Shown piece by piece: positions 16,300 through 35,464 of a stretch of 64,000 nucleotides of DNA. The position numbers and the translations under genes were made by a program. Under the pieces are notes generated by a model that was given only the letters and a program-made list of their open reading frames with translations, made no database searches and was not told the DNA's origin. Within the stretch, counting starts at the first letter, position 1. The number at the start of each line of letters is the position of its first letter. This stretch comes from a virus (lineage: Duplodnaviria > Caudoviricetes): positions 32,001 to 96,000 of IMG/VR virus record IMGVR_UViG_3300021400_000529; one strand, given 5' to 3'.

Positions 16300-16349
16300 C
16301 TGCCAACAAAATAGATAGGAACAAAAAAAAGGAGGAAATAATTAAGAGT

Positions 16350-16925
16350 ATGGGTAAAAATAGGACAAATCAACACACATTTTCACAAGAAACAATACAA
16401 CAATTAGAAAACCATAAAAACTTATGGATAATGGGAGCATATGACTGGATAGACCAAGAAATGTCACAAGAAGAAATAGATTATGTTAAAGCAAACATGG
16501 AAAACATCACACAAATAACAAGTGGATCTGGTGGAATATATCGTGCAGAAAGCACTACTAGAACGTTCAACAAGGAAAAATTAAAAGAAGGTAAAGAGTT
16601 TCAATTCACTGAAGGCGGAACATTCAAAGCATTCAGCAAAGAACAGGATACAGCAGAAAAACATTCACTAGAATCACTTTTAATGAGAGATGATGTAACA
16701 TTATTCAACATAAAAAAAGGACGAGCATATGATGTAACCAAAGACATGGATACTCATGAAGAACAAGAAGTATGGGTGAATAATGAACAAAACTACAGAG
16801 TAACAAAAATTACTGAAACAACACCACAAGATTTAGAATATAATAAAAAATTCACCATACCAACACGAACATGGGACAAAATTAAAAATAAGAAAGTACG
16901 ATTGGTAGAAATAGAAGAGATATAA
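16350..16925 (+). CDS. MGKNR-tagged ADP-ribosyltransferase-like protein
   Basis: MGKNR start; IYRAE...FKAFSK...EEQEVWV (R-S-E pattern). Confidence 0.7.
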   Translation: MGKNRTNQHTFSQETIQQLENHKNLWIMGAYDWIDQEMSQEEIDYVKANMENITQITSGSGGIYRAESTTRTFNKEKLKEGKEFQFTEGGTFKAFSKEQDTAEKHSLESLLMRDDVTLFNIKKGRAYDVTKDMDTHEEQEVWVNNEQNYRVTKITETTPQDLEYNKKFTIPTRTWDKIKNKKVRLVEIEEI

Positions 16926-16965
16926 CACCACAAAAAAAGGGAATAGATAATGGATTAAAGGGATT

Positions 16966-17553
16966 ATGAAGTATAAAGGACCTTTCAAAACATTAGGATT
17001 ACATAATGACCATACCACACATGGCAGACCAGAACTTGATTACTATGGCACACCACCTAGTGCTGTGGAATGGTTACTCAAGTATGAAACATTCAACAAA
17101 AATGTATGGGAACCATGTTGTGGTGAAGGAAATATTAGTCGAACACTCCTAAATCATGGGTATAATGTTAAAAGTAGTGATATTCATGATTATGGTTATA
17201 GTGGTACTGTTGTGTCTGATTTTCTGGAACAAGAAGTTGTGTTTGATGGGGATATAATCACAAATCCCCCCTATAATAACATAACACCATTTGTGTTACA
17301 GGCATATAAATTATGTAAGAACAAAGTGGCAATGCTTCTTAAAATACAGTTCCTTGAAGGTATTCAAAGACATAAGGAAATCTTCAAGGAAATACCACCA
17401 AGCAAGATATATGTATTCACCAAAAGAATTGAATGTCTCCGACAGGGGCAGAAACCGAGGGGTAGTGCAATATGTTATTGTTGGATAATATGGGAAAAAA
17501 ATAACATTTACGAACCTATCATCCGATGGATACCAAACTATTCGGAGGCATAA
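16966..17553 (+). CDS. small DNA amino-methyltransferase
   Basis: DYYGTP, WEPCCGEG (motif I), IITNPPY (motif IV), YCWIIW. Confidence 0.85.
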   Translation: MKYKGPFKTLGLHNDHTTHGRPELDYYGTPPSAVEWLLKYETFNKNVWEPCCGEGNISRTLLNHGYNVKSSDIHDYGYSGTVVSDFLEQEVVFDGDIITNPPYNNITPFVLQAYKLCKNKVAMLLKIQFLEGIQRHKEIFKEIPPSKIYVFTKRIECLRQGQKPRGSAICYCWIIWEKNNIYEPIIRWIPNYSEA

Positions 17554-18099
17554 ATGGGAAAAAACAGACAACGAAATAATTATGCACTAACATTATCCAA
17601 CTACGAATGGGATAATGAATTCCTTGACATGGTTGATGAAGAATTAACAAATTACGTTGATAATGATGACATGTCATTCATGGACAATGACGAAATAACA
17701 GATTACATAGATGAACAAATGATTTCATCCAACCACCAGTTCACAAGAGTTGATAAAATAGAACACTTCCCAAATCTTGAAGAGGGAGACCCTATAGATT
17801 TTAATAGTTATTATGTTTCTTTTAGCGAAAGCATGACTGCTTCAAAACAGTACGCTAAAGAAATGGGTGGGTCTGACCAGTTAATTATCTTTAGAACAAA
17901 TGGCAATGTTAAATCATTTGATATGAGTGATTATGAGGATAGTTACTATTCATGGCAAGAAGAACATTTGTTACATGGTTATCCAGATGAAGGATGGATT
18001 GTTGATAAAGTAACTGATGTTACAAGTGATTCCCAGTTTCAAGATTTAACTCAAACAGGGGATGGTAAAGTGTTGTTGGTAGATATTTCTTTAGGATAA
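17554..18099 (+). CDS. MGKNR-tagged ADP-ribosyltransferase-like protein
   Basis: FTRVD...YVSFSES...WQEEHLL. Confidence 0.7.
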   Translation: MGKNRQRNNYALTLSNYEWDNEFLDMVDEELTNYVDNDDMSFMDNDEITDYIDEQMISSNHQFTRVDKIEHFPNLEEGDPIDFNSYYVSFSESMTASKQYAKEMGGSDQLIIFRTNGNVKSFDMSDYEDSYYSWQEEHLLHGYPDEGWIVDKVTDVTSDSQFQDLTQTGDGKVLLVDISLG

Positions 18100-18120
18100 A
18101 AATAATTATTTTGGAGTGTT

Positions 18121-18972
18121 ATGGTTAGAGATATTATTAAATTAGGTTCTCATAGAGTACTCTGTGGGGATGCAACTAGTAAAAAAGATGTGGATAAACT
18201 TGTTGGTAACCTGGAGGTTGATTTGTTGTTGACTGATCCACCGTATGGTATTAGTATTGTTCAACCTTCATCTGATGGGGTGGGTGGCAGAGTCAGTCCT
18301 CAATACAGTCAACCTTCAGCACAATTCAAGGGAGGGTCGGACACAAGGGAGGTCCGGGAATCACACCATTCAAGAAGTCGGAATCAGTGCAAAACCGAGC
18401 AAAACATTCACAACACACACACACCTAATGATAACAAGATCATTCCTGCAAGAACATATAAACCTGTCATCAATGATGACAAACCCTTCGACCCACAGCA
18501 CCTATTGGATCTGAATGTTCCTACAATACTATTCGGAGGAAACTATTTCGCAGACAATCTTCCTCAGTCTAACAAGTGGTTGGTATGGTATAAGAAACCT
18601 TCTCTTGATGGCAAACGGAATCATTTCAGTGACTGTGAACTGATGTGGACTAACCTTCCGGGAAAACGTGTTGACTGCTATCATCACACATGGAGTGGAA
18701 TGGTGAGGAAGGGTGAACGAAGACTAGAACTCAAAGAAAGAGTACATCCAACACAGAAACCTGTAGGATTATTAATGGATTTAATATGTGATTACACTGA
18801 ACCCAATGATGTAGTGTTGGACTTGTATGGTGGTTCTGGTTCCACATTAATTGCCTGTGAAGAAACTGGGAGGAGATGTCTGATGATGGAATTATCGAAG
18901 GATTATATAGAGATAATACAAGAACGATTCAATAATTATAGAAAAGAAAATGGGAAAAAACAGAAAAAATAG
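18121..18972 (+). CDS. DNA N6/N4 methyltransferase (phage ParB-MTase C-terminal type)
   Basis: LGSHRVLCGDAT, TDPPYG, HPTQKP, DLYGGSGST. Confidence 0.9.
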   Translation: MVRDIIKLGSHRVLCGDATSKKDVDKLVGNLEVDLLLTDPPYGISIVQPSSDGVGGRVSPQYSQPSAQFKGGSDTREVRESHHSRSRNQCKTEQNIHNTHTPNDNKIIPARTYKPVINDDKPFDPQHLLDLNVPTILFGGNYFADNLPQSNKWLVWYKKPSLDGKRNHFSDCELMWTNLPGKRVDCYHHTWSGMVRKGERRLELKERVHPTQKPVGLLMDLICDYTEPNDVVLDLYGGSGSTLIACEETGRRCLMMELSKDYIEIIQERFNNYRKENGKKQKK

Positions 18973-19813
18973 TTATTCGCCATTAACATTAAAAGAAAAT
19001 AGGGACTCTAAAGACATACGGATGCAAATGGCTTTTCTGAATAATGGATGGGATGATCCTACAGAATTAATAGATGCTTGTGCTGACAACAAAATAAAAA
19101 TTGGAGAAATTACTAAAGAATATGTTATCCTTGAAATGGATGATGGAACAAAGCTAAAAATGACATCAGCATTCTATGATAAATACAGAGCTACTGAAAT
19201 TAAATATGCGTCCCTTAATGAAATGTTTGAAAAACTCAATGAAATCCCCTCTTTATTCAGACATGATTTGAACGAAATAAAATTCGATTATATTCCAAAC
19301 TGGAGAAAGTCTTATTGGAACAGGGGGAACATATTCATTAATGCCCATTTCTTAGAAAATCCTAGGAATGATGATATGTTCATAATTGGAACTATCATAC
19401 ATGAGCATGCACACAATCTTGACTTAATGAAAAAGGGGATAACTGAAGAAACACCTATGGAAAAGGTGTTGAAAGATGGTTTCACCAACAATGACAAATT
19501 CAAGAAGTTAATTTCTAAAAAGGATGTTTCTGAATATAGTCAGGGTTATGGTGAAAAAAATGATCCAAGGTATGCGACTGAAAGTTTCGCAGATCTGATG
19601 GAAATAGTAGGAAAAGCACGAATTTATGGTGAAAATAGAATTGAAGCATCAATACTGGTAAAAGAATATAATGAAAAAACCGGAAAATATGATGAAAAAA
19701 CAGTTGGTTATATTGAATGGGCAAAAACTCATAAAGAATTAGCAGAATTTGGTAATAAAATATGGGATGCTGAAACATTAGAGGATGTTGAGAAAGCATT
19801 CAATGATTTGTGA
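18950..19813 (+). CDS. MGKNR-tagged zincin metallopeptidase
   Basis: HEHAHNLD...VSEYS...ESFAD. Confidence 0.8.
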   Translation: MGKNRKNSYSPLTLKENRDSKDIRMQMAFLNNGWDDPTELIDACADNKIKIGEITKEYVILEMDDGTKLKMTSAFYDKYRATEIKYASLNEMFEKLNEIPSLFRHDLNEIKFDYIPNWRKSYWNRGNIFINAHFLENPRNDDMFIIGTIIHEHAHNLDLMKKGITEETPMEKVLKDGFTNNDKFKKLISKKDVSEYSQGYGEKNDPRYATESFADLMEIVGKARIYGENRIEASILVKEYNEKTGKYDEKTVGYIEWAKTHKELAEFGNKIWDAETLEDVEKAFNDL

Positions 19814-19827
19814 AAAAAAAAGAATGT

Positions 19828-20118
19828 TTAATAAATAGGCGTATTTCCCTCATTATCAACACTACTAATAACGAAACGAGAACCATCATCTTTGATAAAA
19901 CATTCTAGGAATTCCTTATGTCCCAATAAGATGCCTTCCATATCATAATGTCCACTAAATTTACTACTGCCTGTAAATACTATAATTTCACCTTCATCTG
20001 TTTTTTCGGTATGATATTCAGTATAGGGGTGTGTTGGGAATATTTCATATTCTTCCATCACTTTTGGAAGTTGTATGTCTAATCCCAAGTTTTTTAGCAG
20101 TTCTTTTAATGTTGTCAT
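19828..20118 (-). CDS. zincin-partner (putative immunity/inhibitor) protein
   Basis: Starts MTTLKELL; AGGTGA RBS; convergent with the zincin. Confidence 0.75.
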   Translation of the reverse strand: MTTLKELLKNLGLDIQLPKVMEEYEIFPTHPYTEYHTEKTDEGEIIVFTGSSKFSGHYDMEGILLGHKEFLECFIKDDGSRFVISSVDNEGNTPIY

Positions 20119-20155
20119 AATTATCACCTTGTATACTTATATTCGTCTTTATTAA

Positions 20156-20170
20156 TATATAAACATTTTT
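20156..20170 (-). promoter_or_regulatory. archaeal BRE/TATA-like promoter for the minus-strand partner gene
   Basis: Minus strand reads AAAAATG-TTTATATA about 40 nt upstream of the start codon. Confidence 0.5.
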
Positions 20171-20216
20171 TTTGGGTTTTATTATAAAACTAACTAATTT
20201 AAACTAACAAAGTATT

Positions 20217-20996
20217 ATGTTTCAAAGAGAAAATTATATTATTTATCACAGTGATTGTATCAAACAGATGGAATACTTAGTAAATGAAAATGTTGAAGTG
20301 GACCTTATCCTTACTGATCCACCATACAACATCAGTAAAAAGAATGATAATCGTGACAGAAGTAAAATGAATGCTCCATGTATGAGGAGGAAAAAGCCAG
20401 TTAATTATGATTTTGGTGAATGGGATAACATGGAACGGGAGGAATTCTTAGACTTCACTGAAGATTGGTTTAACTTATGTACTCAACTGCTCCGAGATGG
20501 TGGTGCGATGATTTCCTTTTTCAGTAAGGAGGATGTGAATTATCTTGGTTGGCTTGGTAAGGCTTATGGTATGAGGACACGAACCATTTTCACATGGCAT
20601 AAAACTAATCCTGTTCCTTCTTTTCGGAAAGTGAATTATTTGAGTAGTTGTGAGTATGCTTGGATTGGTAGTAAGGGTGAAGCTGGTTGGACTTTTAATT
20701 TTAAGCAACAGAAGGAGATGCATAATTTCTTTGAAACACCTAATAAGAGTAGTTATGGTGTTACTGAGCATCCTACTGAAAAACCATTATCTTTAATCAG
20801 GCATTGGATTGAAATTCATTCAAATCCTGATGATGTTGTGTTGGATTGTTTTATGGGTAGTGGTACTACTGGAGTGGCATGTTTACAGTGTGGTAGAAAA
20901 TTCATAGGTATGGAACAGGATGAGAAGTATTACTTGATGGCAAAACAGAGAATAAATGAAGTTGGAAAAAATGGTAAACAAACCAAATTATTATAA
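20217..20996 (+). CDS. DNA N6/N4 methyltransferase (beta class)
   Basis: DPPYN, HPTEKP, DCFMGSGTTG. Confidence 0.92.
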   Translation: MFQRENYIIYHSDCIKQMEYLVNENVEVDLILTDPPYNISKKNDNRDRSKMNAPCMRRKKPVNYDFGEWDNMEREEFLDFTEDWFNLCTQLLRDGGAMISFFSKEDVNYLGWLGKAYGMRTRTIFTWHKTNPVPSFRKVNYLSSCEYAWIGSKGEAGWTFNFKQQKEMHNFFETPNKSSYGVTEHPTEKPLSLIRHWIEIHSNPDDVVLDCFMGSGTTGVACLQCGRKFIGMEQDEKYYLMAKQRINEVGKNGKQTKLL

Positions 20997-21007
20997 TATT
21001 TTAACTT

Positions 21008-21817
21008 ATGATTCAGAAAGAAAATTATACTATTTATAATGGTGACTGTATTAATGTCATGCAAGAATTGGTGGATGATGGAACAAAAGTAGATTTGGTG
21101 CTGACTGACCCTCCTTATAATACTACTAACTTTAAATGGGATAGTATGATTCCTCTTGATGAAATGTGGGGATGCATTAAACAATTAAGAAGATGTGATT
21201 CAACACCAATTGTACTGTTTGGTTTTGAACCATTCAGTTCCTTGTTAAGAACGTCCAATATGAAGGAATATAGGTATGATTGGATATGGGATAAGAAAAT
21301 ACCTGGAAGTATTGGTATTGCAAAATATCAACCACTCAGATACCATGAACTGATTAGCGTGTTTTATAAAAAAGCAGGTCAATATTTTAAACAAATGGTA
21401 CTAAGAAGTGAGGGTGGATTAAAAAGAAACAAGTATAAACCAACTGGTTCAGTGGGATTGAATGCTTTTGGTGGTGGTGATAAGTTTGGTACGGATGCTA
21501 TTGATCAAGAAATGTGGAAATCTGATTATAAAAATCCATCAACAATATTGGAGTTTCCAAGAGTACAATCTAATTCAAAGGAAAAAGTTGCACATCCAAC
21601 TCAGAAACCTGTAAAATTATTGGAATATTTGATTAAAACATATACATTGAATGGTGATACTGTTCTGGATTTCACGATGGGTAGTGGTAGTACTGGTGTG
21701 GCTTGTTTAAATCTTGGAAGGAAATTTATTGGTATTGAGTTGGAAAAGGAATATTTTAATATTGCCAACCAAAGATTGAAAGAAACAGAACACAGCAAAC
21801 AAACAACACTAATATAA
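21008..21817 (+). CDS. DNA N6/N4 methyltransferase (beta class)
   Basis: DPPY, HPTQKP, DFTMGSGSTG; paralog of 14723 and 15535. Confidence 0.92.
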   Translation: MIQKENYTIYNGDCINVMQELVDDGTKVDLVLTDPPYNTTNFKWDSMIPLDEMWGCIKQLRRCDSTPIVLFGFEPFSSLLRTSNMKEYRYDWIWDKKIPGSIGIAKYQPLRYHELISVFYKKAGQYFKQMVLRSEGGLKRNKYKPTGSVGLNAFGGGDKFGTDAIDQEMWKSDYKNPSTILEFPRVQSNSKEKVAHPTQKPVKLLEYLIKTYTLNGDTVLDFTMGSGSTGVACLNLGRKFIGIELEKEYFNIANQRLKETEHSKQTTLI

Positions 21818-21828
21818 GGAAGTTAATA

Positions 21829-22251
21829 ATGGGAAAATCAAGGAATAAATCAACCACACCAACACAACCCACCCAAACAATAACCAACATGTCACCAAAG
21901 CAAGTAGATGACTATGTTGACAAAATAAAGAGTATGTCTGATAATGAATTAATGAAAGCTTACTCTGAGTTTGCATCTAACTGGACTTATGTTATTGAAT
22001 GGAATGGTGGTAGAAGAATGTCTAAATTTATCAGACCCTCTGATGATATAATTGGAGAGAATGGTATTTTGAGGGGTGGTAAAGATAATGTTAATCAACA
22101 ATTTGTAAATTTAAATAGGGTTAGATTGGAATTGGGTGCTGAAATGTTAAATCGAAATTTGGATAATGAGTATGGATATTCGGATGTTCCTTATTATGAA
22201 GTTGTTGATGGTGATATTCAGTTTCATCCATTTACTCCTACAAATGATTAA
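21829..22251 (+). CDS. MGKSR-tagged protein of unknown function
   Basis: Tag variant plus T/P/Q linker; body resembles 27726..28142. Confidence 0.75.
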   Translation: MGKSRNKSTTPTQPTQTITNMSPKQVDDYVDKIKSMSDNELMKAYSEFASNWTYVIEWNGGRRMSKFIRPSDDIIGENGILRGGKDNVNQQFVNLNRVRLELGAEMLNRNLDNEYGYSDVPYYEVVDGDIQFHPFTPTND

Positions 22252-22398
22252 TAAATGTGTAGAGTTATTCTGATTATTTTTTTAATATAATATAACATTC
22301 ATCAATTAAAATAGATTTTATACTAAAACATAAAAAGAATATGTAGGATATAATTAATATTATCAAAAAAAAATTTATAGGAGAACAATTAAAAAATA

Positions 22399-24090
22399 AT
22401 GAATTATTTATCATTATTCAGTGGAATCGGTGGCTTCGAATATGGAATCGAACAAAGTCGATACGCTGACAAATTAAACTGTATAGGATTCGGTGAAATA
22501 GACAAATATGCAAAAAACATCTACAAAAAACACTATCCAAACCACGTTGACCTCGGAGACGTTACCAAAATCAGAACAGAAGACCTACCAACGTTTGACT
22601 TCTTGGTTGGAGGATTCCCATGTCAAGCATTTTCTGTTGCAGGAAAAAGAAGAGGGTTCAGTGACACCAGAGGAACTCTCTTTTTTGAAATCGCAAGGAT
22701 TCTCAGAGACAAAAAACCAAAATATTTTTTACTCGAAAACGTTAAAGGTCTCTTATCTCATGACAAAGGAAGAACTTTCCAGACAATCCTTAGGACACTC
22801 TCCGAATTGGGGTATGATGTACAATGGGAGATATTTAACAGCAAAAACCATGGAGTACCCCAGAATAGGGAAAGGATATATATTAAAGGATTTCTTAGAA
22901 CACGATGTGGACAAGAAATATTATCTCTCAGAAAAGCAGGTGCAACGGTTGATGCCAGACAAGGAAAAAGTCAAAAAGATAATTCATTGAACTGGTTGTG
23001 GACTAAAGGTAGATCAAAAAAACTTGTTGATTCCAATAAAAATTCATTGACTTTAACTGGAGGAGGACATAATAGTGGAGCCAATCAATTAATAGTGGAA
23101 AAATGTATTGGTTCAACTCAAAAAAATGAAAGTGTAACTGATGAAAATGGTATTTCACCAACATTAATTTGTGGTCATGTAGGTAGTACTAAGATTGTGG
23201 ATGAAGAACCACAACTTGTAAGATTAAACGAAAAACCTGAAAACAAAAGAGATAAAGAAGAAAATAGAGTATACAGTGAAGAGGGCATATCACCAACACT
23301 TACTGCTACAAAAACAAGTCAAATAAAAGTGGGATGTGTTGATGATGGTGAATTACTCTTTCCTTCAACAAAAGAGGGTAACTTCTTTGCTGTAACAACA
23401 CATCCTAGGGGGATGCCATTCTCTAAGAAAATAGACAATTATGTTTTTGAAAAAACAGATCCTAAACTAATTAAAGACAAAAATCAACCAAAAATTAATA
23501 AGATAGGAAACATTAACCCTAATGGAAAAAGTCAAAGTGGAAATGTATATGATGAAAATGGTTTAAGTCCTACCTTAAACTGTACTGATTACAAAGCACC
23601 TGTAAAAATATTGCTTCGTAACAATACAGAAAAAAATGATCGTATCATTAAAGTAGGGAATATTCGTCCTAATCAGAAAAGTCAAAGTGGAAATGTATAT
23701 GATGAAAAGGGGCTTAGTTCAACAATAACCTCTGATAAACCTCTTAAAATATTGCTTCGTAACAATACAAGGAAGGGTTATGCTGAAGCAAGTGATGGTG
23801 ATGGTTTTGTTATTAATCAGTATAATTGTAGAGGTCGTGTTCAGAAGGAAAGTGTTCCTACATTAAATACTGGTGATGGTTGTGGTGCTGGTACATTTGA
23901 TGGTTATGTTGTCAGACGTTTAACTCCTGTTGAAACAGAGAGATTACAGGGATTCCCTGATGACTGGACTAAGACCGGTGCTGATGGTAGTTTGATTAGT
24001 GATACTCAACGGTATAAGTGTTGTGGTAATGCTGTTACTACTAATGTTGTACGGGATATACTTGATACGTGGGATATGGTGTTTGAATAA
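22399..24090 (+). CDS. dcm: DNA cytosine-5 methyltransferase with long repetitive variable region
   Basis: LFSGIGG, GFPCQ, ENVKG, QNRER, RRLTPVETERLQGFPD, GNAVT. Confidence 0.93.
   Translation: MNYLSLFSGIGGFEYGIEQSRYADKLNCIGFGEIDKYAKNIYKKHYPNHVDLGDVTKIRTEDLPTFDFLVGGFPCQAFSVAGKRRGFSDTRGTLFFEIARILRDKKPKYFLLENVKGLLSHDKGRTFQTILRTLSELGYDVQWEIFNSKNHGVPQNRERIYIKGFLRTRCGQEILSLRKAGATVDARQGKSQKDNSLNWLWTKGRSKKLVDSNKNSLTLTGGGHNSGANQLIVEKCIGSTQKNESVTDENGISPTLICGHVGSTKIVDEEPQLVRLNEKPENKRDKEENRVYSEEGISPTLTATKTSQIKVGCVDDGELLFPSTKEGNFFAVTTHPRGMPFSKKIDNYVFEKTDPKLIKDKNQPKINKIGNINPNGKSQSGNVYDENGLSPTLNCTDYKAPVKILLRNNTEKNDRIIKVGNIRPNQKSQSGNVYDEKGLSSTITSDKPLKILLRNNTRKGYAEASDGDGFVINQYNCRGRVQKESVPTLNTGDGCGAGTFDGYVVRRLTPVETERLQGFPDDWTKTGADGSLISDTQRYKCCGNAVTTNVVRDILDTWDMVFE
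22508..22990 (+). CDS. overlapping alternative-frame ORF inside the C5 MTase (putative beta-type subunit)
   Basis: 160 codons open in the +1 frame; ends LKDFLEHDVDKKYYLSEKQVQRL, a C5-MTase-associated motif. Confidence 0.55.
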   Translation: MQKTSTKNTIQTTLTSETLPKSEQKTYQRLTSWLEDSHVKHFLLQEKEEGSVTPEELSFLKSQGFSETKNQNIFYSKTLKVSYLMTKEELSRQSLGHSPNWGMMYNGRYLTAKTMEYPRIGKGYILKDFLEHDVDKKYYLSEKQVQRLMPDKEKVKKIIH

Positions 24091-24242
24091 TTGGTAAACG
24101 GTTATCTTTTTGTTTATAATAATTGTTTGTTGATATTTAGAATGGAGAAAAAATATGGATAAAACTATTCAATTAGAGCATGCGCACCAACCACATAAAA
24201 AGTACACTTTTGAACAACCAATAATAGGATATTTTAATTGTT

Positions 24243-24992: not shown

Positions 24993-25041
24993 ATTTTTAG
25001 AAATAGGTTTACTGTATATAATAGGATGGTGATTATGAGAT

Positions 25042-25362: not shown

Positions 25363-25371
25363 TTAGGTATT

Positions 25372-26187: not shown

Positions 26188-26223
26188 TATACAAACAAAT
26201 ATAATGGAGTGTTAATTAGATAA

Positions 26224-26886
26224 ATGGGTAAAAATAGAAATTCAAACAATAATTCGTACATGACTGGGATGGGTGTTGCTGTTGATACAGATGGTCACTC
26301 TGAAAGATTTATGCAAAAACTTGAAGACAACATAGATACTTGGCTTATGGGTTATGTGGAAAGTATCATACATAAGATGTCACCAGAGGAAATACATTAT
26401 CTTATTGATCATATGCAACTCTCTGACAGTGACATGGTTCCATCCGGTCATTTAACTAGGCTAGAACGTAAATCTCATTCAGACGATCTTAAAGAGGGAG
26501 ATCTTCTTAAGAATAATAATTTGTTCCGTTCGTTTAGTAGAGAACCCTCTTCTTCAGATGAGATACTTGGTATATATAGGGATATGGGTGAGGGTATTGA
26601 TGATTTTGTGATTTATAGGACTGTGGGACAAGTTCCATTTTTTGACCCTTCAAAATTTAGTAATCCTTTCCCATATCAAACAGAGGCATTTGTTCCTGTG
26701 GATTCAATGAGAGTAAGTGAAATTCATACTGTAACTGATAGTAATGAGTTGGCTGTTTTAACTGACATTAATCAAAACATTCCAGAGGGTAAGTCTGTTA
26801 AGGTAATAGATATTGTATATGACCCTTCTATAAGAAGTGTGCCGGTTACTCTTGTGAGTGGTGAAACAACAATAAATTTGCACTAA
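26224..26886 (+). CDS. MGKNR-tagged ADP-ribosyltransferase-like protein
   Basis: LTRLE...FRSFSRE...YQTEAFV. Confidence 0.7.
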   Translation: MGKNRNSNNNSYMTGMGVAVDTDGHSERFMQKLEDNIDTWLMGYVESIIHKMSPEEIHYLIDHMQLSDSDMVPSGHLTRLERKSHSDDLKEGDLLKNNNLFRSFSREPSSSDEILGIYRDMGEGIDDFVIYRTVGQVPFFDPSKFSNPFPYQTEAFVPVDSMRVSEIHTVTDSNELAVLTDINQNIPEGKSVKVIDIVYDPSIRSVPVTLVSGETTINLH

Positions 26887-26922
26887 AAAAATAACAAATA
26901 CGGGAATAGGAATGATTAACTT

Positions 26923-27084
26923 ATGGGTAAAAATTGGAGTAGTAGTAACAGTTCTGATTCTATAAATAATGATGGGGACAACGCTGTTAATCCTATGGAA
27001 GTAATGGAAAAATACTGTGGTGATTTAATAAATCTTTTTGAGGACGGCAGAAAAATTGATGATGAGGTTGATGTGTTTGGTTAA
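26923..27084 (+). CDS. MGKNW-tagged 53-aa micro-ORF (not in ORF track), possible relic
   Basis: Manually translated MGKNWSSSNSSDSINNDGDNAVNPMEVMEKYCGDLINLFEDGRKIDDEVDVFG. Confidence 0.55.
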   Translation: MGKNWSSSNSSDSINNDGDNAVNPMEVMEKYCGDLINLFEDGRKIDDEVDVFG

Positions 27085-27241
27085 TATTTTTTTTGTCTTG
27101 AATAATATGACAAAATATATATATTACTTTTCATAAAATACAATTATAAAAGTATAATGTAATTGTATATGTAATAATTACAAAATAAAACCTAAAAAAA
27201 ATAGTAAATTCTTAAAAAAAATATAATAAGGTGTGTAAGTT

Positions 27242-27673: not shown

Positions 27674-27725
27674 CATGTAAAAAGGGAAATAAAATAAGTG
27701 GTGTTTAAGGAGTATGAAATAGGTT

Positions 27726-28142: not shown

Positions 28143-28165
28143 TTAACTATTTTTTTTAAAGGATT

Positions 28166-28249
28166 ATGGGTAAAAACAGAACAAATGCAAACTTTGGACA
28201 GTCAAAGGGGGAACTTGTTTATTTTACTGCTGGTGGAAAAAAAATTTAA
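28166..28249 (+). CDS. MGKNR-tagged 27-aa micro-ORF (not in ORF track), possible relic
   Basis: Manually translated MGKNRTNANFGQSKGELVYFTAGGKKI. Confidence 0.5.
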   Translation: MGKNRTNANFGQSKGELVYFTAGGKKI

Positions 28250-28319
28250 TTAATATTCTCTTTTTTTATTGATATTTTATTTAAAAATAATTTTTTTAAA
28301 GGGAGATGAATGTAGGAAT

Positions 28320-29261
28320 ATGGGAAAAAATAGGAAAAGTAGTGGTGGAACTGGTGATAATGGAAATGAACCAACAACTTCTGATGAAATGTTCAATGAT
28401 GAACAATGGGAAAATGTGCATACAGCGGAAGAAATTGCGGAATTAACTGGATGGGAATTCACCAAGACACAAAGAGGTAGTTATAAATTTTATGATCGTG
28501 AACATGATTTAACATTGTTTATTGATAAGACAATGTTAACTAATGGTTTCATCAATGCGGATAGTGATGGTGGTAACCATCTTAAAAGTAATTATGGAAG
28601 TGCTCAACCTCAAGATCTTCGTGACATTGCTCGGATGGTTCATGAGTTGCCAGATAAAAATAAAGAAGCAACACCTCTTATTCTATTCAGAAATAATTTC
28701 AAAACAAGATATTTAGGTGAGCATGTTCATCACAGTGATTTCTGGGATGAAATTATTCCTGGACATGAAGTTGTTATTAACTCCTCTTCTTTCAAAAGTG
28801 TTGCTGGACATAGTCTTAGAAGAACACTTTTACATGAAACGTATCATGCAGAAGATTATATGAGGGGTACTGGCAGTAAATCATACGCTTCTGATGCTTT
28901 TGGTATTTCTAATAAACAGTCTTTCAAGAATGCTATTGACTTGGATGTTCAGAATTATGGTAGTAAAGGTATTTCGATGAATTCTGGTGGATATGCTCGT
29001 GGAAGTGTAACTTATTATAAGGAATGTTGGGCTGATGCTGCAAGTATTGTTCAACTTAAGAGGATGGGTTATTCTAATGAAAAAATTAAGTTACGTGATG
29101 GATCACTTGTAACTGTTGATGATTGGATTAAAACATATCCTAATACTTATAAATCTGTTTCAAATGAATTGGATAACAATGCTGTACTTCCATTCCAAAG
29201 GGGAGAAGATTATAATATAATAAGAGATTCGTTTGTGAATAAATATAAATTAAACAAGTAA
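28320..29261 (+). CDS. MGKNR-tagged zincin metallopeptidase
   Basis: True start ATG 28320; HETYHAED...ECWAD; close paralog of 36095. Confidence 0.8.
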   Translation: MGKNRKSSGGTGDNGNEPTTSDEMFNDEQWENVHTAEEIAELTGWEFTKTQRGSYKFYDREHDLTLFIDKTMLTNGFINADSDGGNHLKSNYGSAQPQDLRDIARMVHELPDKNKEATPLILFRNNFKTRYLGEHVHHSDFWDEIIPGHEVVINSSSFKSVAGHSLRRTLLHETYHAEDYMRGTGSKSYASDAFGISNKQSFKNAIDLDVQNYGSKGISMNSGGYARGSVTYYKECWADAASIVQLKRMGYSNEKIKLRDGSLVTVDDWIKTYPNTYKSVSNELDNNAVLPFQRGEDYNIIRDSFVNKYKLNK

Positions 29262-29293
29262 AAATAAAAAAGAGATATTTTGGGAGTGGATGA

Positions 29294-29629
29294 TTACATT
29301 TCTTTGATTTCTATGTCTTCATCTGTAAAGACAAGTTCTTTGTAAGTTTCAGCTTCTTCTGTGTTGTCATCAGGGTATCCTAAGTATGTTATGGTTACTT
29401 GGTTGTTTTCTTCTTTGTTTTCAGGGTTGATTATGATTTCAAAGTGTGTGTTGTCATCTATTGTTCCTTTGAATACGTGTATTTTTGTGTTGTTTCTTGT
29501 TTCTTCTGTGTATTCTTGGAATGATTCTATTTTTGTTCCGAATGGGTTTTCGATGTTGTAGTTTAGTATGTTATCTTCCAGTTTTATGTTGGTGTTGAAT
29601 TTGTTGAGTAATTCTTTTAGTGTGGTCAT
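29294..29629 (-). CDS. zincin-partner (putative immunity/inhibitor) protein
   Basis: Start MTTLKELLNKFN at 29629 with AGGAG RBS. Confidence 0.75.
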   Translation of the reverse strand: MTTLKELLNKFNTNIKLEDNILNYNIENPFGTKIESFQEYTEETRNNTKIHVFKGTIDDNTHFEIIINPENKEENNQVTITYLGYPDDNTEEAETYKELVFTDEDIEIKEM

Positions 29630-29643
29630 ATTTTTTTTACTCC

Positions 29644-29976
29644 TTATTCCTTGGTTGGTAATGGTTTTCTCTGGTTTTCTGTGAATGGTTTCCATTCTTT
29701 GTATGGGAAGTTTTTTGTATGTTTTTGGTCCATTCTCCAGCTGGTTACTTTTACTTCTTCTTCATTTATTCGTTGGATTAGTAGTATTGCTATTCTGTCA
29801 TCATTGATTCTTAGCCATACATCTGGGTTTTCGGTGTTGGTGAATTCCATTATGTATCCTGTGTTGTCGATGTATGCTTTGTTGAATGTGTAATCACCGA
29901 TGTTTATGTTTTCAACTTTTTCTGAGTATCTGTAGAGTGCGTTGAATTTGTCTAATATTTGTTTTATGGTTGTCAT
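29644..29976 (-). CDS. zincin-partner family protein (second copy in tandem)
   Basis: MTTIKQILDKFN; AGGAGA RBS. Confidence 0.7.
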   Translation of the reverse strand: MTTIKQILDKFNALYRYSEKVENINIGDYTFNKAYIDNTGYIMEFTNTENPDVWLRINDDRIAILLIQRINEEEVKVTSWRMDQKHTKNFPYKEWKPFTENQRKPLPTKE

Positions 29977-30108
29977 ATTGGGTCATCTCCTATAAAATTT
30001 ATTTTTTTTTTATTTGTTATATATGTATGATGTTTATTGATATTTATATTTTATCTTTTATTATAGAATCTATTAATTAATTAATGTTGTGGTGAAATAG
30101 AAAAGAAA

Positions 30109-30828
30109 ATGGGAAAAAATAGAAAAACGGGTCAGACACCAAATGATGATGGTGCTCCGAGTAAAGAACCAAGCAAGGAATTTTTGATAAACCTTGCCAA
30201 GAAAATAGCAAAATGGGAATCATTCGGCCAAAATAATCCAACCCATGAAATGACTGAAGAAGAATTAGAATACATCAAGGAACATGAAGAAATACTTGAA
30301 TATGTGGACCGGTTTGGCAGACCCATAAATTCACTTTACAGAGTGGAAAGAGCTTATCATTTCACACCAGATGGTAGTAGTAGTATAGATGATATTCTGA
30401 AAAATTTACATAAAGGGGATATGTTAAGTTCCATTGATAATGACAAATCAAATTACCGCTCTTTTTCTGATGATGCTAAAGCTAATTACACATATCTTAG
30501 TGCAAACTGTCCATGGAGTAATGCTGTAATCATAAGAACTCATGGAAACATCTCCTATTTTGACCCACGGAAGTTAGCAGATGTGTACTCATCAGAAAAG
30601 GAAGTGTGGGTTAGTAAAAACAAGTTGAAGGTGGATAATCTTACAAGATTGCAAGGAAAAAATATCAGTGAAGAACTCCAACGAGAACTTGGCATCAACT
30701 CCGGCTATGATGTAGCACCAGAAGATGTTTTAATCATAGACGTATCCCCAGTGGGTGACAACTCTTATAGTAAACGAGAAGAAATGTGGGAACAAGTAAA
30801 ACGGAAATATCCAAGAGCATTTAAATAG
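30109..30828 (+). CDS. MGKNR-tagged ADP-ribosyltransferase-like protein
   Basis: LYRVE...YRSFSDD...SEKEVWV. Confidence 0.72.
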   Translation: MGKNRKTGQTPNDDGAPSKEPSKEFLINLAKKIAKWESFGQNNPTHEMTEEELEYIKEHEEILEYVDRFGRPINSLYRVERAYHFTPDGSSSIDDILKNLHKGDMLSSIDNDKSNYRSFSDDAKANYTYLSANCPWSNAVIIRTHGNISYFDPRKLADVYSSEKEVWVSKNKLKVDNLTRLQGKNISEELQRELGINSGYDVAPEDVLIIDVSPVGDNSYSKREEMWEQVKRKYPRAFK

Positions 30829-30839
30829 GTGTGTAAATT

Positions 30840-31385
30840 ATGGGTAAAAATAGGAAAACTGTCCCGAATAGTTATTCAAAAGAATTTTTTGATGGTTTAA
30901 ATAAAAAAATACGTGATTGGGTTGAATTTAGTTTTGGATATACACCTGATGATTATCTTACTGATGATGAATTAGACTTCATATTTCAACAGATGGAAAA
31001 TTCAGAAACCACTTTAACCAGAGTTGAGGAAGCAGAACGAAACTTTGAGAAAGAAGTGGAAGATGAAGATGGTTGGTACGATTTTGTTGAACCAAAAGTT
31101 GGTGATACATTTAATTTTAATGGAAAATTAAAGGCATTCAGTAAAACAGAAAAAGCAACAAGAGATTTTATGAGAAGGTATATGAAAGACAGAAAGAATC
31201 TTGTCATATATAGACTACCTAAAGGAACACAACACTTTGATGTGCAAAAATATGATAACTTTTTTGATGAGGAAAAGGAAAGTTGGGTAAAAAGTAAGGG
31301 ATATGTTATTACTGGTATTGAAGATGTTTCTAAACAGTTTGCTCACAAAAGGGTTCAAATAGTAGACTTAGAACCAATTAAATAA
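30840..31385 (+). CDS. MGKNR-tagged ADP-ribosyltransferase-like protein
   Basis: LTRVE...LKAFSKT...EEKESWV. Confidence 0.7.
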   Translation: MGKNRKTVPNSYSKEFFDGLNKKIRDWVEFSFGYTPDDYLTDDELDFIFQQMENSETTLTRVEEAERNFEKEVEDEDGWYDFVEPKVGDTFNFNGKLKAFSKTEKATRDFMRRYMKDRKNLVIYRLPKGTQHFDVQKYDNFFDEEKESWVKSKGYVITGIEDVSKQFAHKRVQIVDLEPIK

Positions 31386-31480
31386 CTGTTCAAATAACAA
31401 ATAGTGATTATTTTTTTATATTTGTATGTTTTATTATAAGCTTGATTTTTTTGTGGAGTTAATTAGGAGGTAAAGTTTTT

Positions 31481-31924
31481 ATGGAAAATAATGATTTGTT
31501 GTTAATTGATTTTTTTAAACCGGAAGGATTGCATGATAGAATTATTTTATATTATTCTAATGGTAATGTTGAGGAGATTCGTGGAAAAGAGTGGGATAAA
31601 AAACATTATGAGGATGTGGCTGGACAAGTGGCTGATGAAGATACTATTTTCCGGGTGACATATCTTTTGAAGGAGCATGTTGCTTTTCAACCAGTGAATA
31701 ACTGGTCTAAGAATGATTTGAAGAATCGGTTGACTCCTTGTTTGGTAATTGTTCCTAAGAAAGTGTTCATTGATGATTTTGGATTTGATATTGATACTAC
31801 GCCCGCATGGGAAAGACCTTGGCCATTGTATGATTTGTTATTGGGTCATGAACAAATAATTAAAATATATTATGGTGATTCTTTTGATGATATTCATGAA
31901 AAGATGATGGGAGTACTTGTTTAA
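31481..31924 (+). CDS. hypothetical protein
   Basis: AGGAGGT RBS, 147 aa. Confidence 0.75.
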   Translation: MENNDLLLIDFFKPEGLHDRIILYYSNGNVEEIRGKEWDKKHYEDVAGQVADEDTIFRVTYLLKEHVAFQPVNNWSKNDLKNRLTPCLVIVPKKVFIDDFGFDIDTTPAWERPWPLYDLLLGHEQIIKIYYGDSFDDIHEKMMGVLV

Positions 31925-31953
31925 TAATTTGGAATGGATAATGGTAAAGGGTT

Positions 31954-32496
31954 ATGGATTTTAAAAAGATAAAATTTGGTGAATTATCTCCTGCTGAATA
32001 TAATCCTCGGTTAATATCTGAAGATGAATTTAAGCGGTTGTGTTATAATTTAAAGGAGTTTGGACTTGTTGATCCGATAATTATTAATCTTAAAAATAAT
32101 CGGATTATTGGTGGTCATCAAAGATATTTGGCATTATCTGAATCAATTTCACAGGATATGGATATGAATGTGTTGTGTCTTGGTGATATTGGTTGGGTGT
32201 TTGAGGATAAGGATTTGTTGATAAAGGATGAACGGTATGAAAAGTCTTTGAATATTTCTCTTAATCGTTTGTCTGGTGAATGGGATTTGGATAAGTTATC
32301 TAAATTGTTGGAGGATATAGTGGATTCTGGTTTGGATAATAGATTGTCTGGGTTTCAGCCCTCTGATTTTGAATTGTATGGTGAACAGGAGGAAATTTCT
32401 TTTAATGAGGATTTGTTTGATTTGGATAAGGTGTATGCTCCTCCACATATGACTGTTTGTCCTCATTGTAATCATGAATTTTTTGAGGCTAATTAA
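31954..32496 (+). CDS. ParB/Srx N-terminal-domain protein with C-terminal zinc knuckle
   Basis: PAEYNPR...EFGLVDPIIIN...IIGGHQR; CPHCNHEF. Confidence 0.85.
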   Translation: MDFKKIKFGELSPAEYNPRLISEDEFKRLCYNLKEFGLVDPIIINLKNNRIIGGHQRYLALSESISQDMDMNVLCLGDIGWVFEDKDLLIKDERYEKSLNISLNRLSGEWDLDKLSKLLEDIVDSGLDNRLSGFQPSDFELYGEQEEISFNEDLFDLDKVYAPPHMTVCPHCNHEFFEAN

Positions 32497-32498
32497 AG

Positions 32499-33245
32499 AT
32501 GGATATTTATGCTACAGTTAGGCCAGAAGTGTTGGGTTATCTTAATAAAACTGATTTTTTTAAGGATAAACCTTTGAATTTTCTTTTCAAATTTAATAAT
32601 AATTCATATAATTATTTAACGGATTATTCTAATCTTAATATATTGGTGGATAGTGGGGCATATTATTTTAATGCTTATTCTCAGCAAACTGAAGGTGAGG
32701 AAACGTTTGAGTTTATTGCGAAGTATATGGATTTTATTCATGATACTTTAGATGATCCTCGGATGAGGGGTTATTTTGACATGGATTTGAGGCATATGGG
32801 TTTGCATAGGATAAAGAAGATCCGAAGTAAGTTGTTTAAAATCACTGATAAGATAATTCCGGTGTATCATATTTCTTGGGGTGAACATGAGTTTAAATGG
32901 ATGTGTAAGAAATATGATTATATTGGGTTTCCGTGTAGTTCTAATTGTGGTCCGGAGTATTTTATACCTTTTGTTAAGTATGCTCATAAGCATGATTGTA
33001 AAATTCATGGTTTGGGTATGGATAGGGATAAAGTTATGAATCTTGTTCCTTTTGATTCAACAGATAGTGCTTTATGGATAAGACGGTCGATAACTGAGGG
33101 TTATTATTATAATAAGCATATTCCTAAAAATTTGGAGAATAATACTAAGTATAAACAGATTTATGTTCGTAGGGAGATGCAGAATCAGATTGGTCGTCAA
33201 ATTTATTATAAAAAAAGATGGAATCAGTATAATACAGTGATATAG
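32499..33245 (+). CDS. TGT/DpdA-like (queuine/7-deazaguanine transglycosylase fold) protein
   Basis: ILVDSGAY, IIPVYH, KIHGLG, PFDSTDS; adjacent to queC. Confidence 0.6.
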   Translation: MDIYATVRPEVLGYLNKTDFFKDKPLNFLFKFNNNSYNYLTDYSNLNILVDSGAYYFNAYSQQTEGEETFEFIAKYMDFIHDTLDDPRMRGYFDMDLRHMGLHRIKKIRSKLFKITDKIIPVYHISWGEHEFKWMCKKYDYIGFPCSSNCGPEYFIPFVKYAHKHDCKIHGLGMDRDKVMNLVPFDSTDSALWIRRSITEGYYYNKHIPKNLENNTKYKQIYVRREMQNQIGRQIYYKKRWNQYNTVI

Positions 33246-33292
33246 TTAAACTATAATTTTTTTTTGTGTAAATACTTTTTTTTGGAGAATTT

Positions 33293-33952
33293 ATGATGAA
33301 AGTTGAAAAAATATACTTTTCAGATATACAACCTAGTGATTATAATCCTAGAAAAATAAGTCAAAATGAGATGTCTTCATTGTCACATAATTTAAAGGAG
33401 TTTGGACTTGTTGACCCTATAATAATTAACCTTAAAAACAATCATATTATTGGGGGTCATCAAAGATACAAAGTATTGGCAAGGAAGTATGGAGGAAATG
33501 AAAAATCCCAATTACACCTAATAAAACTAGGTGATATAGGATGGGTGTTTGAAGAAGATAAACTAACAATAAAAGATGAAGAACATGAAAAAGCATTAAA
33601 CCTTGCATTGAATAGGATAAAAGGTGAATGGGATTTTTCAAAATTATCACCAATCCTATATGACCTACGAAACTCGGATTTCAACACAAACTTAACCGGT
33701 TTCTCCACATTCGAAATAGATAAATTCACCATCCCCTCCGATTTAAACTTAGAATTCAATGAAATAGCAGAAATAGAAAAAGGGGAACGAAAACCAGAAA
33801 CAAACAATGATACTCCTGAAGAACAACAAGACACTTCCACAACAAACAATGAAACTGATGATGAACTAGAAAATGATGATGTACTGGTAAGTGCTGAGGA
33901 AATAGAACGATTACATAAACATAAATGTCCTAACTGCGGTTATGAATGGTAA
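33293..33952 (+). CDS. ParB/Srx N-terminal-domain protein with C-terminal zinc knuckle
   Basis: YNPRKIS...EFGLVDPIIINLKNNHIIGGHQR; CPNCGYEW; paralog of 31954. Confidence 0.85.
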   Translation: MMKVEKIYFSDIQPSDYNPRKISQNEMSSLSHNLKEFGLVDPIIINLKNNHIIGGHQRYKVLARKYGGNEKSQLHLIKLGDIGWVFEEDKLTIKDEEHEKALNLALNRIKGEWDFSKLSPILYDLRNSDFNTNLTGFSTFEIDKFTIPSDLNLEFNEIAEIEKGERKPETNNDTPEEQQDTSTTNNETDDELENDDVLVSAEEIERLHKHKCPNCGYEW

Positions 33953-33974
33953 TGTAAGGAGAGATGTGTGTTAT

Positions 33975-34736
33975 ATGGATTATAGTGTAGCTAATCAATA
34001 TGAGAAAGAAATAAAACAAAAACTACAAAACAAACAATCAATGTCAAACCAAGAAATATTAGATGACATAACAAGAATTGACCTGAAACCTTCCCTCCTG
34101 ATTATGAGTGGTGGGTTAGATACTACAACTCTTTTATACTATTTGTGGGAAAAGTTAGTTCCTATTGAAGTGTTGAGTGTGGATTATGGTCAAGAGGGTT
34201 TGAAGGAACTGGATTATGTAAAACGCCATTGTGAAAAGTTGGGTGTGAAATATCATACGGTGAAAATATCTGACTTGGATGTGGCTGGTAACCTTGCAAG
34301 TGGTTGTGATAAAGTTAATGATGGTTCTACTCTTATTCCTAACCGTAATAGTATGTTTTTAAGTATTGGTGTAAGTTATGCTTTGCAGCATGGAATGGAA
34401 CGTGTGTATTATGGTGCGATAGATTGTGATCCGGCTTATTGTGATTGTCAACCTTTGTATGTGCATTATTTTAATATGCTTAATATGGTGTGTGATTTGA
34501 GGGAAGTACAGATTAAAGCACCTTTTATTGATAAGTCTAAAAGGGAAGTTATGGATATTGCTATGGAATTGGGTTTGGATTTGAATGATACTTGGACTTG
34601 TTTATGTGGTGGTGAGAAACAGTGTGGTGTTTGTGAAGCTTGTAGAACAAGGAAAGAAGCAGAACAGGAATATGTGAATTATTTAAATAAAAAGGTACGT
34701 TCTGTTCAAAGTAGTTTAAACAATTATGAAAAATAG
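33975..34736 (+). CDS. queC: 7-cyano-7-deazaguanine synthase QueC
   Basis: SGGLDT PP-loop, DYGQ, IPNRNSMFLS, DC.P, TWTC...CGVCEAC zinc site; likely start ATG 33975. Confidence 0.88.
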   Translation: MDYSVANQYEKEIKQKLQNKQSMSNQEILDDITRIDLKPSLLIMSGGLDTTTLLYYLWEKLVPIEVLSVDYGQEGLKELDYVKRHCEKLGVKYHTVKISDLDVAGNLASGCDKVNDGSTLIPNRNSMFLSIGVSYALQHGMERVYYGAIDCDPAYCDCQPLYVHYFNMLNMVCDLREVQIKAPFIDKSKREVMDIAMELGLDLNDTWTCLCGGEKQCGVCEACRTRKEAEQEYVNYLNKKVRSVQSSLNNYEK

Positions 34737-34765
34737 TTGCTGATTGGAAATGTGGGGTGTTACTT

Positions 34766-35464
34766 ATGGGAAAGAATAGACATAATATAAACAATCCTTC
34801 AGTGTATGAATTGGAGCAAGGACTGCCGTTTCCTCCAAGTGCACATAGAATAATACCTACTGATGGTCATTCACCAGAATGGATGGATGCTTTTATTCAA
34901 CACATGGCTTTATGGGTAAATTTTGGTGCATTTGACCCAAATAATGGATTTTCTAAAGAAGAAAGGGAGTACATACTCAAAAACATGGAACCTTTGTCAG
35001 AATCATACCGGAAACAAAAGTTACTTTGGGGTGAGACTGATCCTGATATGTTTCGGGCACCGACTGTATTAGTAAGGATTGAAAAACAACATCACTTTAA
35101 TAAACAAAATTTAAAAAAAGGGGATAAATTGTCATCTAATCATGAATTAAGAAGTTTCAGTAGGGATGAAAGATTACCCTCTCACCTTATGGATGAGTAT
35201 ACTGGAAAATATGAGGGTGGTGCTACCATATACATCATAAAGGGAGACACAAAACAATATGATGTAAATTACCTTGAACCATTTCAAGGAGAAAAGGAAT
35301 CTTTTGTTGATTCAAACTCCTTAGTTGTTTCAGATACTAAAAAGTATCGGGGCAGTAATGAAAAAATGGTGGATAGAATATATGATGATTATGGTATTGA
35401 TTTGAGTAGTGCTCGTAACCTTCCTTCAAACATAAGAATAGTGGAGTTAACCCAAGAAAACTGA
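34766..35464 (+). CDS. MGKNR-tagged ADP-ribosyltransferase-like protein
   Basis: True start ATG 34766; LVRIE...LRSFSRD...GEKESFV. Confidence 0.72.
   Translation: MGKNRHNINNPSVYELEQGLPFPPSAHRIIPTDGHSPEWMDAFIQHMALWVNFGAFDPNNGFSKEEREYILKNMEPLSESYRKQKLLWGETDPDMFRAPTVLVRIEKQHHFNKQNLKKGDKLSSNHELRSFSRDERLPSHLMDEYTGKYEGGATIYIIKGDTKQYDVNYLEPFQGEKESFVDSNSLVVSDTKKYRGSNEKMVDRIYDDYGIDLSSARNLPSNIRIVELTQEN

Follow-up and report, generated by a model that had tools for sequence, protein, structure and literature searches.

The stretch of DNA analysed here (the window, 64,000 nucleotides) comprises bases 32001-96000 of a single-contig virus record, IMGVR_UViG_3300021400_000529, which is 137,316 bases long and has a completeness of 95% as estimated by CheckV. 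The G+C content of the window is ~32%, and its + strand carries nearly all of the genes. Among them are six small, mutually diverged open reading frames (ORFs) whose products are supported by structural modelling as having an ADP-ribosyltransferase (ART) fold of the R-S-E clade, and all of which begin with the same five residues, MGKNR (hereafter the tag). The six genes are as follows, with the motifs given as Arg strand / serine motif / terminal loop and lengths in amino acids (aa):

16350..16925, + strand: ART paralog 1, 191 aa, begins MGKNR; YRAE / KAFS / EQE, ExE type; the first Ser of S-x-S is Ala
17554..18099, + strand: ART paralog 2, 181 aa, begins MGKNR; TRVD / VSFS / QEE, QxE type; acidic, with an isoelectric point of 4.05
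26224..26886, + strand: ART paralog 3, 220 aa, begins MGKNR; TRLE / RSFS / QTE, QxE type; has a C-terminal extension
30109..30828, + strand: ART paralog 4, 239 aa, begins MGKNR; YRVE / RSFS / EKE, ExE type
30840..31385, + strand: ART paralog 5, 181 aa, begins MGKNR; TRVE / KAFS / EKE, ExE type; the first Ser of S-x-S is Ala
34766..35464, + strand: ART paralog 6, 232 aa, begins MGKNR; VRIE / RSFS / EKE, ExE type

All six ORFs are present at the starts proposed in a first-pass annotation of the sequence; for paralog 6, the ATG at 34766, which yields MGKNR, was preferred over a GTG at 34757. The motifs described in that annotation (a helix, an Arg strand, a serine motif, and a terminal (E/Q)xE) were all reproduced in an alignment of the six proteins, in which the helix segments of paralogs 1-6 read MSQEEIDYV, MDNDEITDYI, MSPEEIHYL, MTEEELEYI, LTDDELDFI, and FSKEEREYI, and share a (M/L/F)(S/T/D)xxE(I/L)xY(I/V/L)-like pattern. 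Identity in this alignment is 19-28%, and the invariant columns are R65, G81, F95, S96, D128, and E140 (paralog 1 numbering). The paralogy that had been claimed for the six is independent of their common N-terminus: pairwise blastp without the first 12 residues joins all of them (E 4e-10 to 1e-4 for most pairs, dbsize 1e5), and a tag-free profile of 80 family members scores them at E 6e-52 to 7.5e-38. Because E is 0.3 for the next-ranked ORF in the 137-kb genome with this profile, the virus encodes exactly six members of the family, and no further diverged paralogs were found in the genome by this means. Weak matches of the six-protein profile to other MGKNR-bearing ORFs are owed to the tag alone and were rejected as evidence of kinship.

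Paralogs 26224 and 34766, together with many homologs of one large subclade, carry a segment reading Y-x-T-x-x-G-x-x-V-x-TDGHS-x-EFM between the tag and the ART helices, which is missing from 16350, 17554, 30109, and 30840. Paralog 3 is followed by a 355-nucleotide gap (26887-27241) that is unusually long for this tightly packed region, and which contains only a 53-codon ORF (26923-27084).

A profile search of 1.84 billion representative proteins retrieved 128 relatives, 84 of them at E<=1e-10, and 80 of the 128 served as alignment input for AlphaFold2. The model of 30840 (ExE) has a predicted local distance difference test (pLDDT) score of 89.9 and a predicted template modelling (pTM) score of 0.85, with the tag residues 1-7 disordered (pLDDT <50); a model built separately for 17554 (QEE), the most divergent paralog, has a pLDDT of 91.4. 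In a Foldseek search of PDB with the 30840 model, only R-S-E clade ARTs appear at the top (E ~1e-5, probability 1.0), namely Plx2A, C3bot1/2, VIP2, Certhrax, Vis, CDTa, iota Ia, and C3cer, and the top 50 matches are C3, VIP2, iota, Certhrax, Vis, and Plx2A-type ARTs. VIA-align, a structure search independent of Foldseek that covered 48,161 chains, placed ART-fold domains at ranks 1-23 for both models (Z up to 10.2 for 30840 and 10.7 for 17554), after which Z falls to 4.5-5. For 30840, the leading matches are Certhrax (Z 10.2, 153 residues, 3.7 Å), CPILE-a (Z 9.8), VIP2 (Z 9.5), and C3bot2 (Z 9.4), with C2-I, ExoS, HopU1, Tre1, Vis, ART2.2, and SpvB also matched; for 17554 the same list was obtained, including Certhrax (Z 10.7, 141 residues, 3.0 Å) and VIP2 (24% identity). 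Among predicted viral structures (BFVD), those closest to 30840 are phage ADP-ribosylases, ModA, ModB, and fusions with portal, minor-capsid, or head-morphogenesis proteins, and neighbours in the ESM Atlas language-model space are viral clusters with ADPrib_exo_Tox or Mod_ADP_RT domains. The modelled folds of both paralogs thus match R-S-E ARTs at the top, rather than a non-ART fold, as the ART reading in the first-pass annotation predicted, and they support assignment of the six genes to this fold; on these models, the six proteins are very probably ART-fold enzymes that use nicotinamide adenine dinucleotide (NAD+).

The best structural matches, the C3, Certhrax, VIP2, and iota-type toxins, align along almost the full length of the domain and take in its N-terminal helices (Z 9.4-10.7, with 134-153 residues aligned), although identity is 8-24%. 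The window proteins differ from these toxins in having no secretion signal, binding component, or second domain, and in their setting, a probable methanogen virus with no link to animal toxins.

Conservation within the family was assessed as residue counts across the 80 homologs (mean column identity 16%), with numbering according to the 30840 protein. The Arg is present in six of six paralogs and 80/80 homologs; 79/80 have the last Glu of the loop, and 79/80 have Gly at position 88. The loop opens with Glu in 45/80 and Gln in 33/80, and the serine motif reads (S 59 / A 19)-(F/Y)-(S 67 / T 11). No columns of the 128-member family are better conserved than these elements (R, S-x-S, and (E/Q)xE), and SFS is present in 17554, 26224, 30109, and 34766. 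In the 30840 model, the first core strand (59-64) contains the Arg, the serine motif (AFS) closes strand 97-101 and is followed by a helix (104-114), and (E/Q)xE stands at the start of strand 147-151; as modelled, all three occupy the canonical ART positions. The six-protein profile matches P0131, P0130, and P0126 at E<1e-3 (among the 1.84 billion proteins), each of which has Pfam matches over cut-off to ART (PF01129) and/or ADPrib_exo_Tox (PF03496) in the same region, and hhalign pairs YRG / STT / EGE of P0131 with R61 / A99-F-S101 / E145-x-E147.

Inactive ART-like domains are known in VIP2, iota toxin, and anthrax lethal factor (LF), which raises the question of whether the six proteins keep the ART fold but are catalytically dead, and serve as scaffold or as internal components of the head. 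The structural matches do include anthrax LF domain 2 (Z 7.9-8.0), and in two paralogs Ala takes the place of the first Ser in the motif. However, dead domains usually lose the Arg and the catalytic Glu, whereas here these are the most conserved columns in spite of the low mean identity, and we regard catalytic inactivity as the least probable of the explanations considered.

As described in the first-pass annotation, the paralogs divide into four of ExE and two of QxE type, and the division runs through the wider family as well (45 E and 33 Q of 80). ARTs with ExE usually modify arginine, as in cholera toxin (CT), iota, VIP2, Alt, and ModA/B, and those with QxE use other acceptors, as in C3, pertussis toxin, and the pierisin/scabin types; the split among the six is the one that separates arginine-specific toxins from C3. 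The four ExE enzymes would most likely modify arginine, and the two QxE enzymes most likely another acceptor.

A maximum-likelihood tree was built from 123 domains, after removal of short fragments and of two near-duplicates of window proteins. In it, every one of the six paralogs falls in a different clade with relatives from other contigs, and five of these clades have support of 97-100 in the Shimodaira-Hasegawa-like approximate likelihood ratio test (SH-aLRT). Paralog 16350 groups with P0034, P0046, and P0055 (SH-aLRT 97), and 17554 with P0032. The 26224 protein belongs to a 13-row clade (SH-aLRT 100), the intact-motif members of which read QxE, and its nearest relative is P0008 (65% identity); 30109 has an ortholog in P0018 (63% identity, SH-aLRT 99). 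Placement of 30840 with P0022 is less firm (fork support 94, and no clade of >=95 holds it), and 34766 lies in a 5-row clade with P0042 and L001:1781-2437 (SH-aLRT 98). Related low-GC contigs are multi-copy too: L001 has four copies within 13 kb, and L005 has four within 6 kb. By these sequence comparisons, the panel is old and maintained, and not a recent tandem burst. The existence of six old paralogs, each with its own ortholog line in related viruses, fits distinct targets.

These observations also bear on whether the proteins are ART-fold NAD+ glycohydrolases (NADases), which would consume NAD+ or degrade NAD-derived immune signals. ART-fold NADase effectors exist, such as the Tne families (PMC13285283), Tne2 being matched by the 17554 model at Z 3.3, and hydrolysis and transfer are inseparable by sequence alone. 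The best matches (Z 8-10.7), however, are protein-modifying transferases with an (E/Q)xE loop, with NADase-type folds far lower, and a set of six paralogs maintained over a long time, with two loop types, suits a variety of acceptors more than one small-molecule substrate; a purely hydrolytic role is accordingly improbable in our view.

Many of the longer relatives have a head-protein domain N-terminal to the ART-like domain. These include fusions to Phage_Mu_F (P0072, P0073, P0077, P0090, P0091, P0103, P0106, and P0133), in which the ART-like domain lies 40-60 residues after MuF, a fusion to Phage_min_cap2 (P0079), and a portal-ART-NUDIX fusion (P0083). The gene order around these fusions is the usual terminase-portal-scaffold one of bacteriophages, and no immunity gene is evident there. 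The window ARTs are free-standing, in contrast to the head-protein fusions of bacteriophages. One bacteriophage head protein (L002:8001-11651, 1216 aa) combines Phage_portal_3, the ART-like domain of the present family (residues 660-831), and NUDIX (860-963), and so joins ADP-ribose-making and ADP-ribose-processing domains.

The possibility that the domain is simply the ADPrib_exo_Tox part of MuF toxins was rejected, as P0073 and P0090 hold it between MuF and a separate, canonical ADPrib_exo_Tox domain. When the family profile was aligned by hhalign with the canonical ADPrib_exo_Tox domains of P0073 and P0090 (as single sequences), the result was not significant, with the ExE segments pairing weakly. 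Since these two proteins carry a second, canonical domain after it, the domain is a separate branch of the R-S-E clade, and not the Pfam family itself. Membership is at the level of the superfamily or clade and not in any curated Pfam family, the link to Pfam being indirect via P0126, P0130, and P0131. PF03496 gave only an 11-bit match in the whole genome, inside the portal gene, and a tblastn search with three paralogs found no match among 50,697 deposited phage records.

The closest known counterparts are the ARTs of phages in the T4 Alt / VIP2 family (Iyer et al. 2022, PMC9503650), which have the same fold and R / S-x-S / (E/Q)xE triad and are likewise encoded beside head genes; head-packaged, MuF-fused, and polyvalent-protein ARTs of the Alt/VIP2 type have already been described, as have at least 10 ARTs in Bacillus phage G (PMC9503650), and ARTs have been annotated in two haloarchaeal tailed viruses (PMC8651126). 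Homologs of the six are fused to MuF, portal, and minor capsid proteins, but the six themselves are unseen by the Pfam ART, ADPrib_exo_Tox, and ART-PolyVal models, and the domain here is unfused, very small (~165 aa), preceded by a five-residue tag, and found in a virus of probably archaeal host. T4 ModA and ModB are also small, standalone phage ARTs of the R-S-E clade (~200 aa), although they have no detectable sequence similarity to the six, are unpackaged, and do not have a shared N-terminal tag.

The tag, on which the first-pass annotation is silent, is not confined to the ARTs: 16 other ORFs begin likewise, giving 22 in total (one of them with MGKSR). MGKNR starts are restricted to 16350-48469, with none elsewhere in the 137-kb genome, and the last tagged ORF ends just before a gene for an XkdF-type prohead protease. 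The tag is usually followed by a linker rich in Gly, Ser, and Asn and then by unrelated bodies; with the tag removed, the 21 full-length tagged proteins form at least 12 unrelated groups, of which the six ARTs are one and zincin-like proteins (with a weak SprT-like match among them) are two or three. The five tag codons vary synonymously and the DNA upstream is unconserved, so selection acts on the peptide. Other tags occur on the ART-like and neighbouring genes of related contigs: MGKNR in L001 (433-12731), MGNN in L005 (434-6132), MASK in L006 (608-4645), and MSLIT in L007 (365-3682), the last of which also bears the start of a terminase resembling that of the window. From these sequences, the tag looks lineage-specific, and given that the peptide is kept through synonymous codon changes and that related lineages have other tags, the pattern is more like that of a co-evolving address than that of a translation signal.

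Two further observations concern the tagged genes. In L007, the called gene at 2789-3682 reads ...SLITRGSGG ~12 residues in, and translation may in fact begin at a non-ATG codon, which would yield the same tag. In the window, a 27-codon ORF at 28166-28249 reads MGKNRTNANFG followed by an early stop, directly upstream of the tagged gene at 28320-29261, and may be the remnant of a lost tagged gene.

There is precedent for such an arrangement in the internal proteins of T4, in which a capsid targeting sequence is found on otherwise unrelated proteins (Rao & Black 2010, PMC3012670). As in T4, one short N-terminal peptide occurs on diverse unrelated bodies (here 22 ORFs); the differences are that MGKNR is unrelated in sequence and is only five residues long, and that the capsid system of this virus is XkdF/HK97-like and not T4-like. 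The tagged genes are interleaved with those for portal, MuF, terminase, and protease, of which the following head genes were identified:

39885..41504, + strand: portal protein (Pfam Phage_portal, 53.6 bits)
41567..42463, + strand: short MuF head-morphogenesis protein (Pfam Phage_Mu_F, 33.4 bits, residues 212-277 of 298)
48531..50198, + strand: XkdF-type prohead serine protease, 555 aa (Pfam Peptidase_S78_2, 54.4 bits), directly after the last MGKNR-tagged ORF

The XkdF-type protease is a possible processing enzyme for tagged cargo. The MuF protein of the window stops ~20 residues past the MuF domain and has no C-terminal effector.

The six ART genes themselves sit among DNA methyltransferases, ParB-N-like genes, and QueC. 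Dense DNA-modification genes, interleaved with tagged genes, occupy 10791-24090 and 31954-34736, and comprise an Eco57I/MmeI-type fusion (1004 aa), three N6_N4 methyltransferases, a Dam-like gene, and a C5 methylase (563 aa), as well as two ParB-N-like genes and QueC, which suggests 7-deazaguanine modification.

This neighbourhood favours a different account, in which the six are active but unpackaged ARTs whose action, like that of ModA and ModB, is confined to the infected cell, with MGKNR serving some other end such as efficient initiation, stability, or timing. Five of the six genes lie 4-23 kb upstream of the portal gene, surrounded by DNA methyltransferase, QueC, and ParB-like genes, a typical early or anti-restriction neighbourhood, and ModA and ModB are among the structural neighbours. 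Set against this, bacteriophages repeatedly have this domain joined to head proteins, the tagged genes are interleaved with those for portal, MuF, terminase, and protease, and the tag is kept as a peptide but swapped for other tags in relatives, which fits an address better. We therefore consider a purely intracellular role unlikely, albeit the leading alternative to packaging.

The first-pass annotation had claimed that the ART genes have no partner genes, and this was borne out: searches aimed at Macro, ARH, and Nudix found no such gene in the virus genome, and no conserved small neighbour stands beside any ART gene in the window or beside orthologs in L001, L005, L006, and L007. The finding is relevant to the polymorphic MuF toxins that temperate phages carry (Jamet et al. 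2017, PMC5576092; Zhang et al. 2012, PMC3482391), in which an effector domain is associated with MuF, as it is here in homologs only; the MuF protein of the window is bare, the ARTs are standalone, and no cognate immunity gene was found for them. The six could be toxins of this kind directed against competing cells, with immunity genes unrecognised so far, given that homologous domains are C-terminal to MuF and that zincin-like tagged genes in the same region have small antisense partners. By contrast, neither the ART genes nor their orthologs have a conserved small partner, Macro, ARH, and Nudix genes are absent from the genome, and in the bacteriophage fusions examined, scaffold or holin genes follow directly. 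A polymorphic toxin role is thus very improbable.

The host is probably an archaeon, and probably a methanogen of the Methanobacteriales, to judge from sequence similarity. The large terminase (TerL) has 58% identity to that of Methanobacterium virus Drs3 (order Methanobavirales), with next-best matches at ~31%, and the head module is similar to that of Drs3 in its portal, MuF, XkdF protease, and capsid protein, although the Drs3 genome is 37 kb compared with 137 kb here. A PCNA-like sliding clamp is encoded outside the window (G000:C1:20936-21259; PCNA_N 51.7 bits, over the Pfam cut-off), and among the control genomes PCNA_N was found only in the four archaea. Together, the PCNA-like clamp and the Drs3-like terminase support an archaeal host for this 137-kb head-tail virus. 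Sub-threshold matches to Peptidase_C71 (pseudomurein endoisopeptidase) and PMBR (pseudomurein-binding repeat) are weak hints of a pseudomurein host. A search of the virus genome for MCM was negative, and no proviruses were found in genome contigs with TerL alone or with TerL aligned with that of Drs3.

Several points weigh against a reading of the six as packaged ARTs that modify the macromolecules of an archaeal host. Pfam (including PF03496, PF01129, and PF18760) matches none of the six at E<=1, PHROG models match none of them directly, and a profile search of PDB sequences returned nothing for the six; the mapping of their residues onto ARTs is by profile alignments and secondary-structure positions. 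Paralogs 16350 and 30840 carry Ala at the first Ser of S-x-S (AFS), which may weaken NAD+ binding. This variant, found in 19/80 family members, is probably tolerated, as it is kept across whole ortholog clades that retain R and ExE in their sequences. Most of the ART genes lie 4-23 kb upstream of the portal gene amid DNA methyltransferase genes, a position that would equally suit early intracellular expression. Packaging is a prediction from the tag, its genomic context, and the head-protein fusions of homologs, and the evidence for the probable host is indirect.

Weighing these points, we propose the following scheme. The six would be small, catalytically competent mono-ADP-ribosyltransferases with a C3/VIP2/Alt-like fold. 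From its N-terminus, each protein would consist of the five residues MGKNR, a short linker that is disordered, and a helical N-lobe with a split beta-sandwich. The Arg of strand 1 and the S-x-S of strand 2 would hold NAD+, and ADP-ribose would be passed on to a host macromolecule with the help of the Glu in the (E/Q)xE loop. The MGKNR tag would load the proteins into the procapsid, whereas in bacteriophages the domain reaches the head as part of a MuF, portal, or minor capsid protein 2 fusion. From the procapsid they would enter the cell with the DNA, as T4 Alt does, and the delivered ARTs would disarm the host or reprogram it as infection begins. What the data show is the fold, the conserved triad, and the old paralogy, from which NAD+ use and targets are predicted; it is probable that the six are active ARTs that modify host macromolecules. 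By analogy with T4 Alt, loading into the procapsid through the tag and entry with the DNA is the reading to which we give a rough probability of 0.55. A broader version, in which the whole set of ~22 proteins is loaded into the capsid by a lineage-specific five-residue address and injected, with the ARTs forming a multi-enzyme panel, part Arg-type and part non-Arg-type, aimed at archaeal proteins of which RNA polymerase, translation factors, and defence proteins are examples, is tentative, and in our estimate falls somewhat short of even odds. The suggestion in the first-pass annotation that the paralogs have distinct targets, and that they act in a regulatory rather than a lethal manner or are activated only after delivery, may also apply; activation after delivery is made more plausible by the bacteriophage proteins in which this domain is joined to MuF, portal, or minor capsid protein.

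ADP-ribosylation is central to takeover of the cell by bacteriophages, as with the Alt, ModA, and ModB enzymes of T4, and to the action of bacterial toxins. New here are a branch of the R-S-E clade that is missed by curated models and absent at the level of BLAST from the deposited phage records (for the three paralogs queried), a long-maintained panel of six members in a probable methanogen virus, and a standalone, tagged architecture in place of fusion, with tags that are lineage-specific. As the family is invisible to Pfam and PHROG, similar genes in gut and rumen viromes are now labelled hypothetical. Six long-kept ARTs with two loop types would give handles on which archaeal proteins the virus must modify, and the standalone tagged forms, set beside the fusions to MuF, portal, and capsid proteins, constitute a natural experiment on the addressing of effectors to the capsid. 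If the tagged proteins are indeed an injected set, they would be the first effector arsenal of this kind described in any virus of archaea, and the tag would act as a packaging signal that can be transferred.

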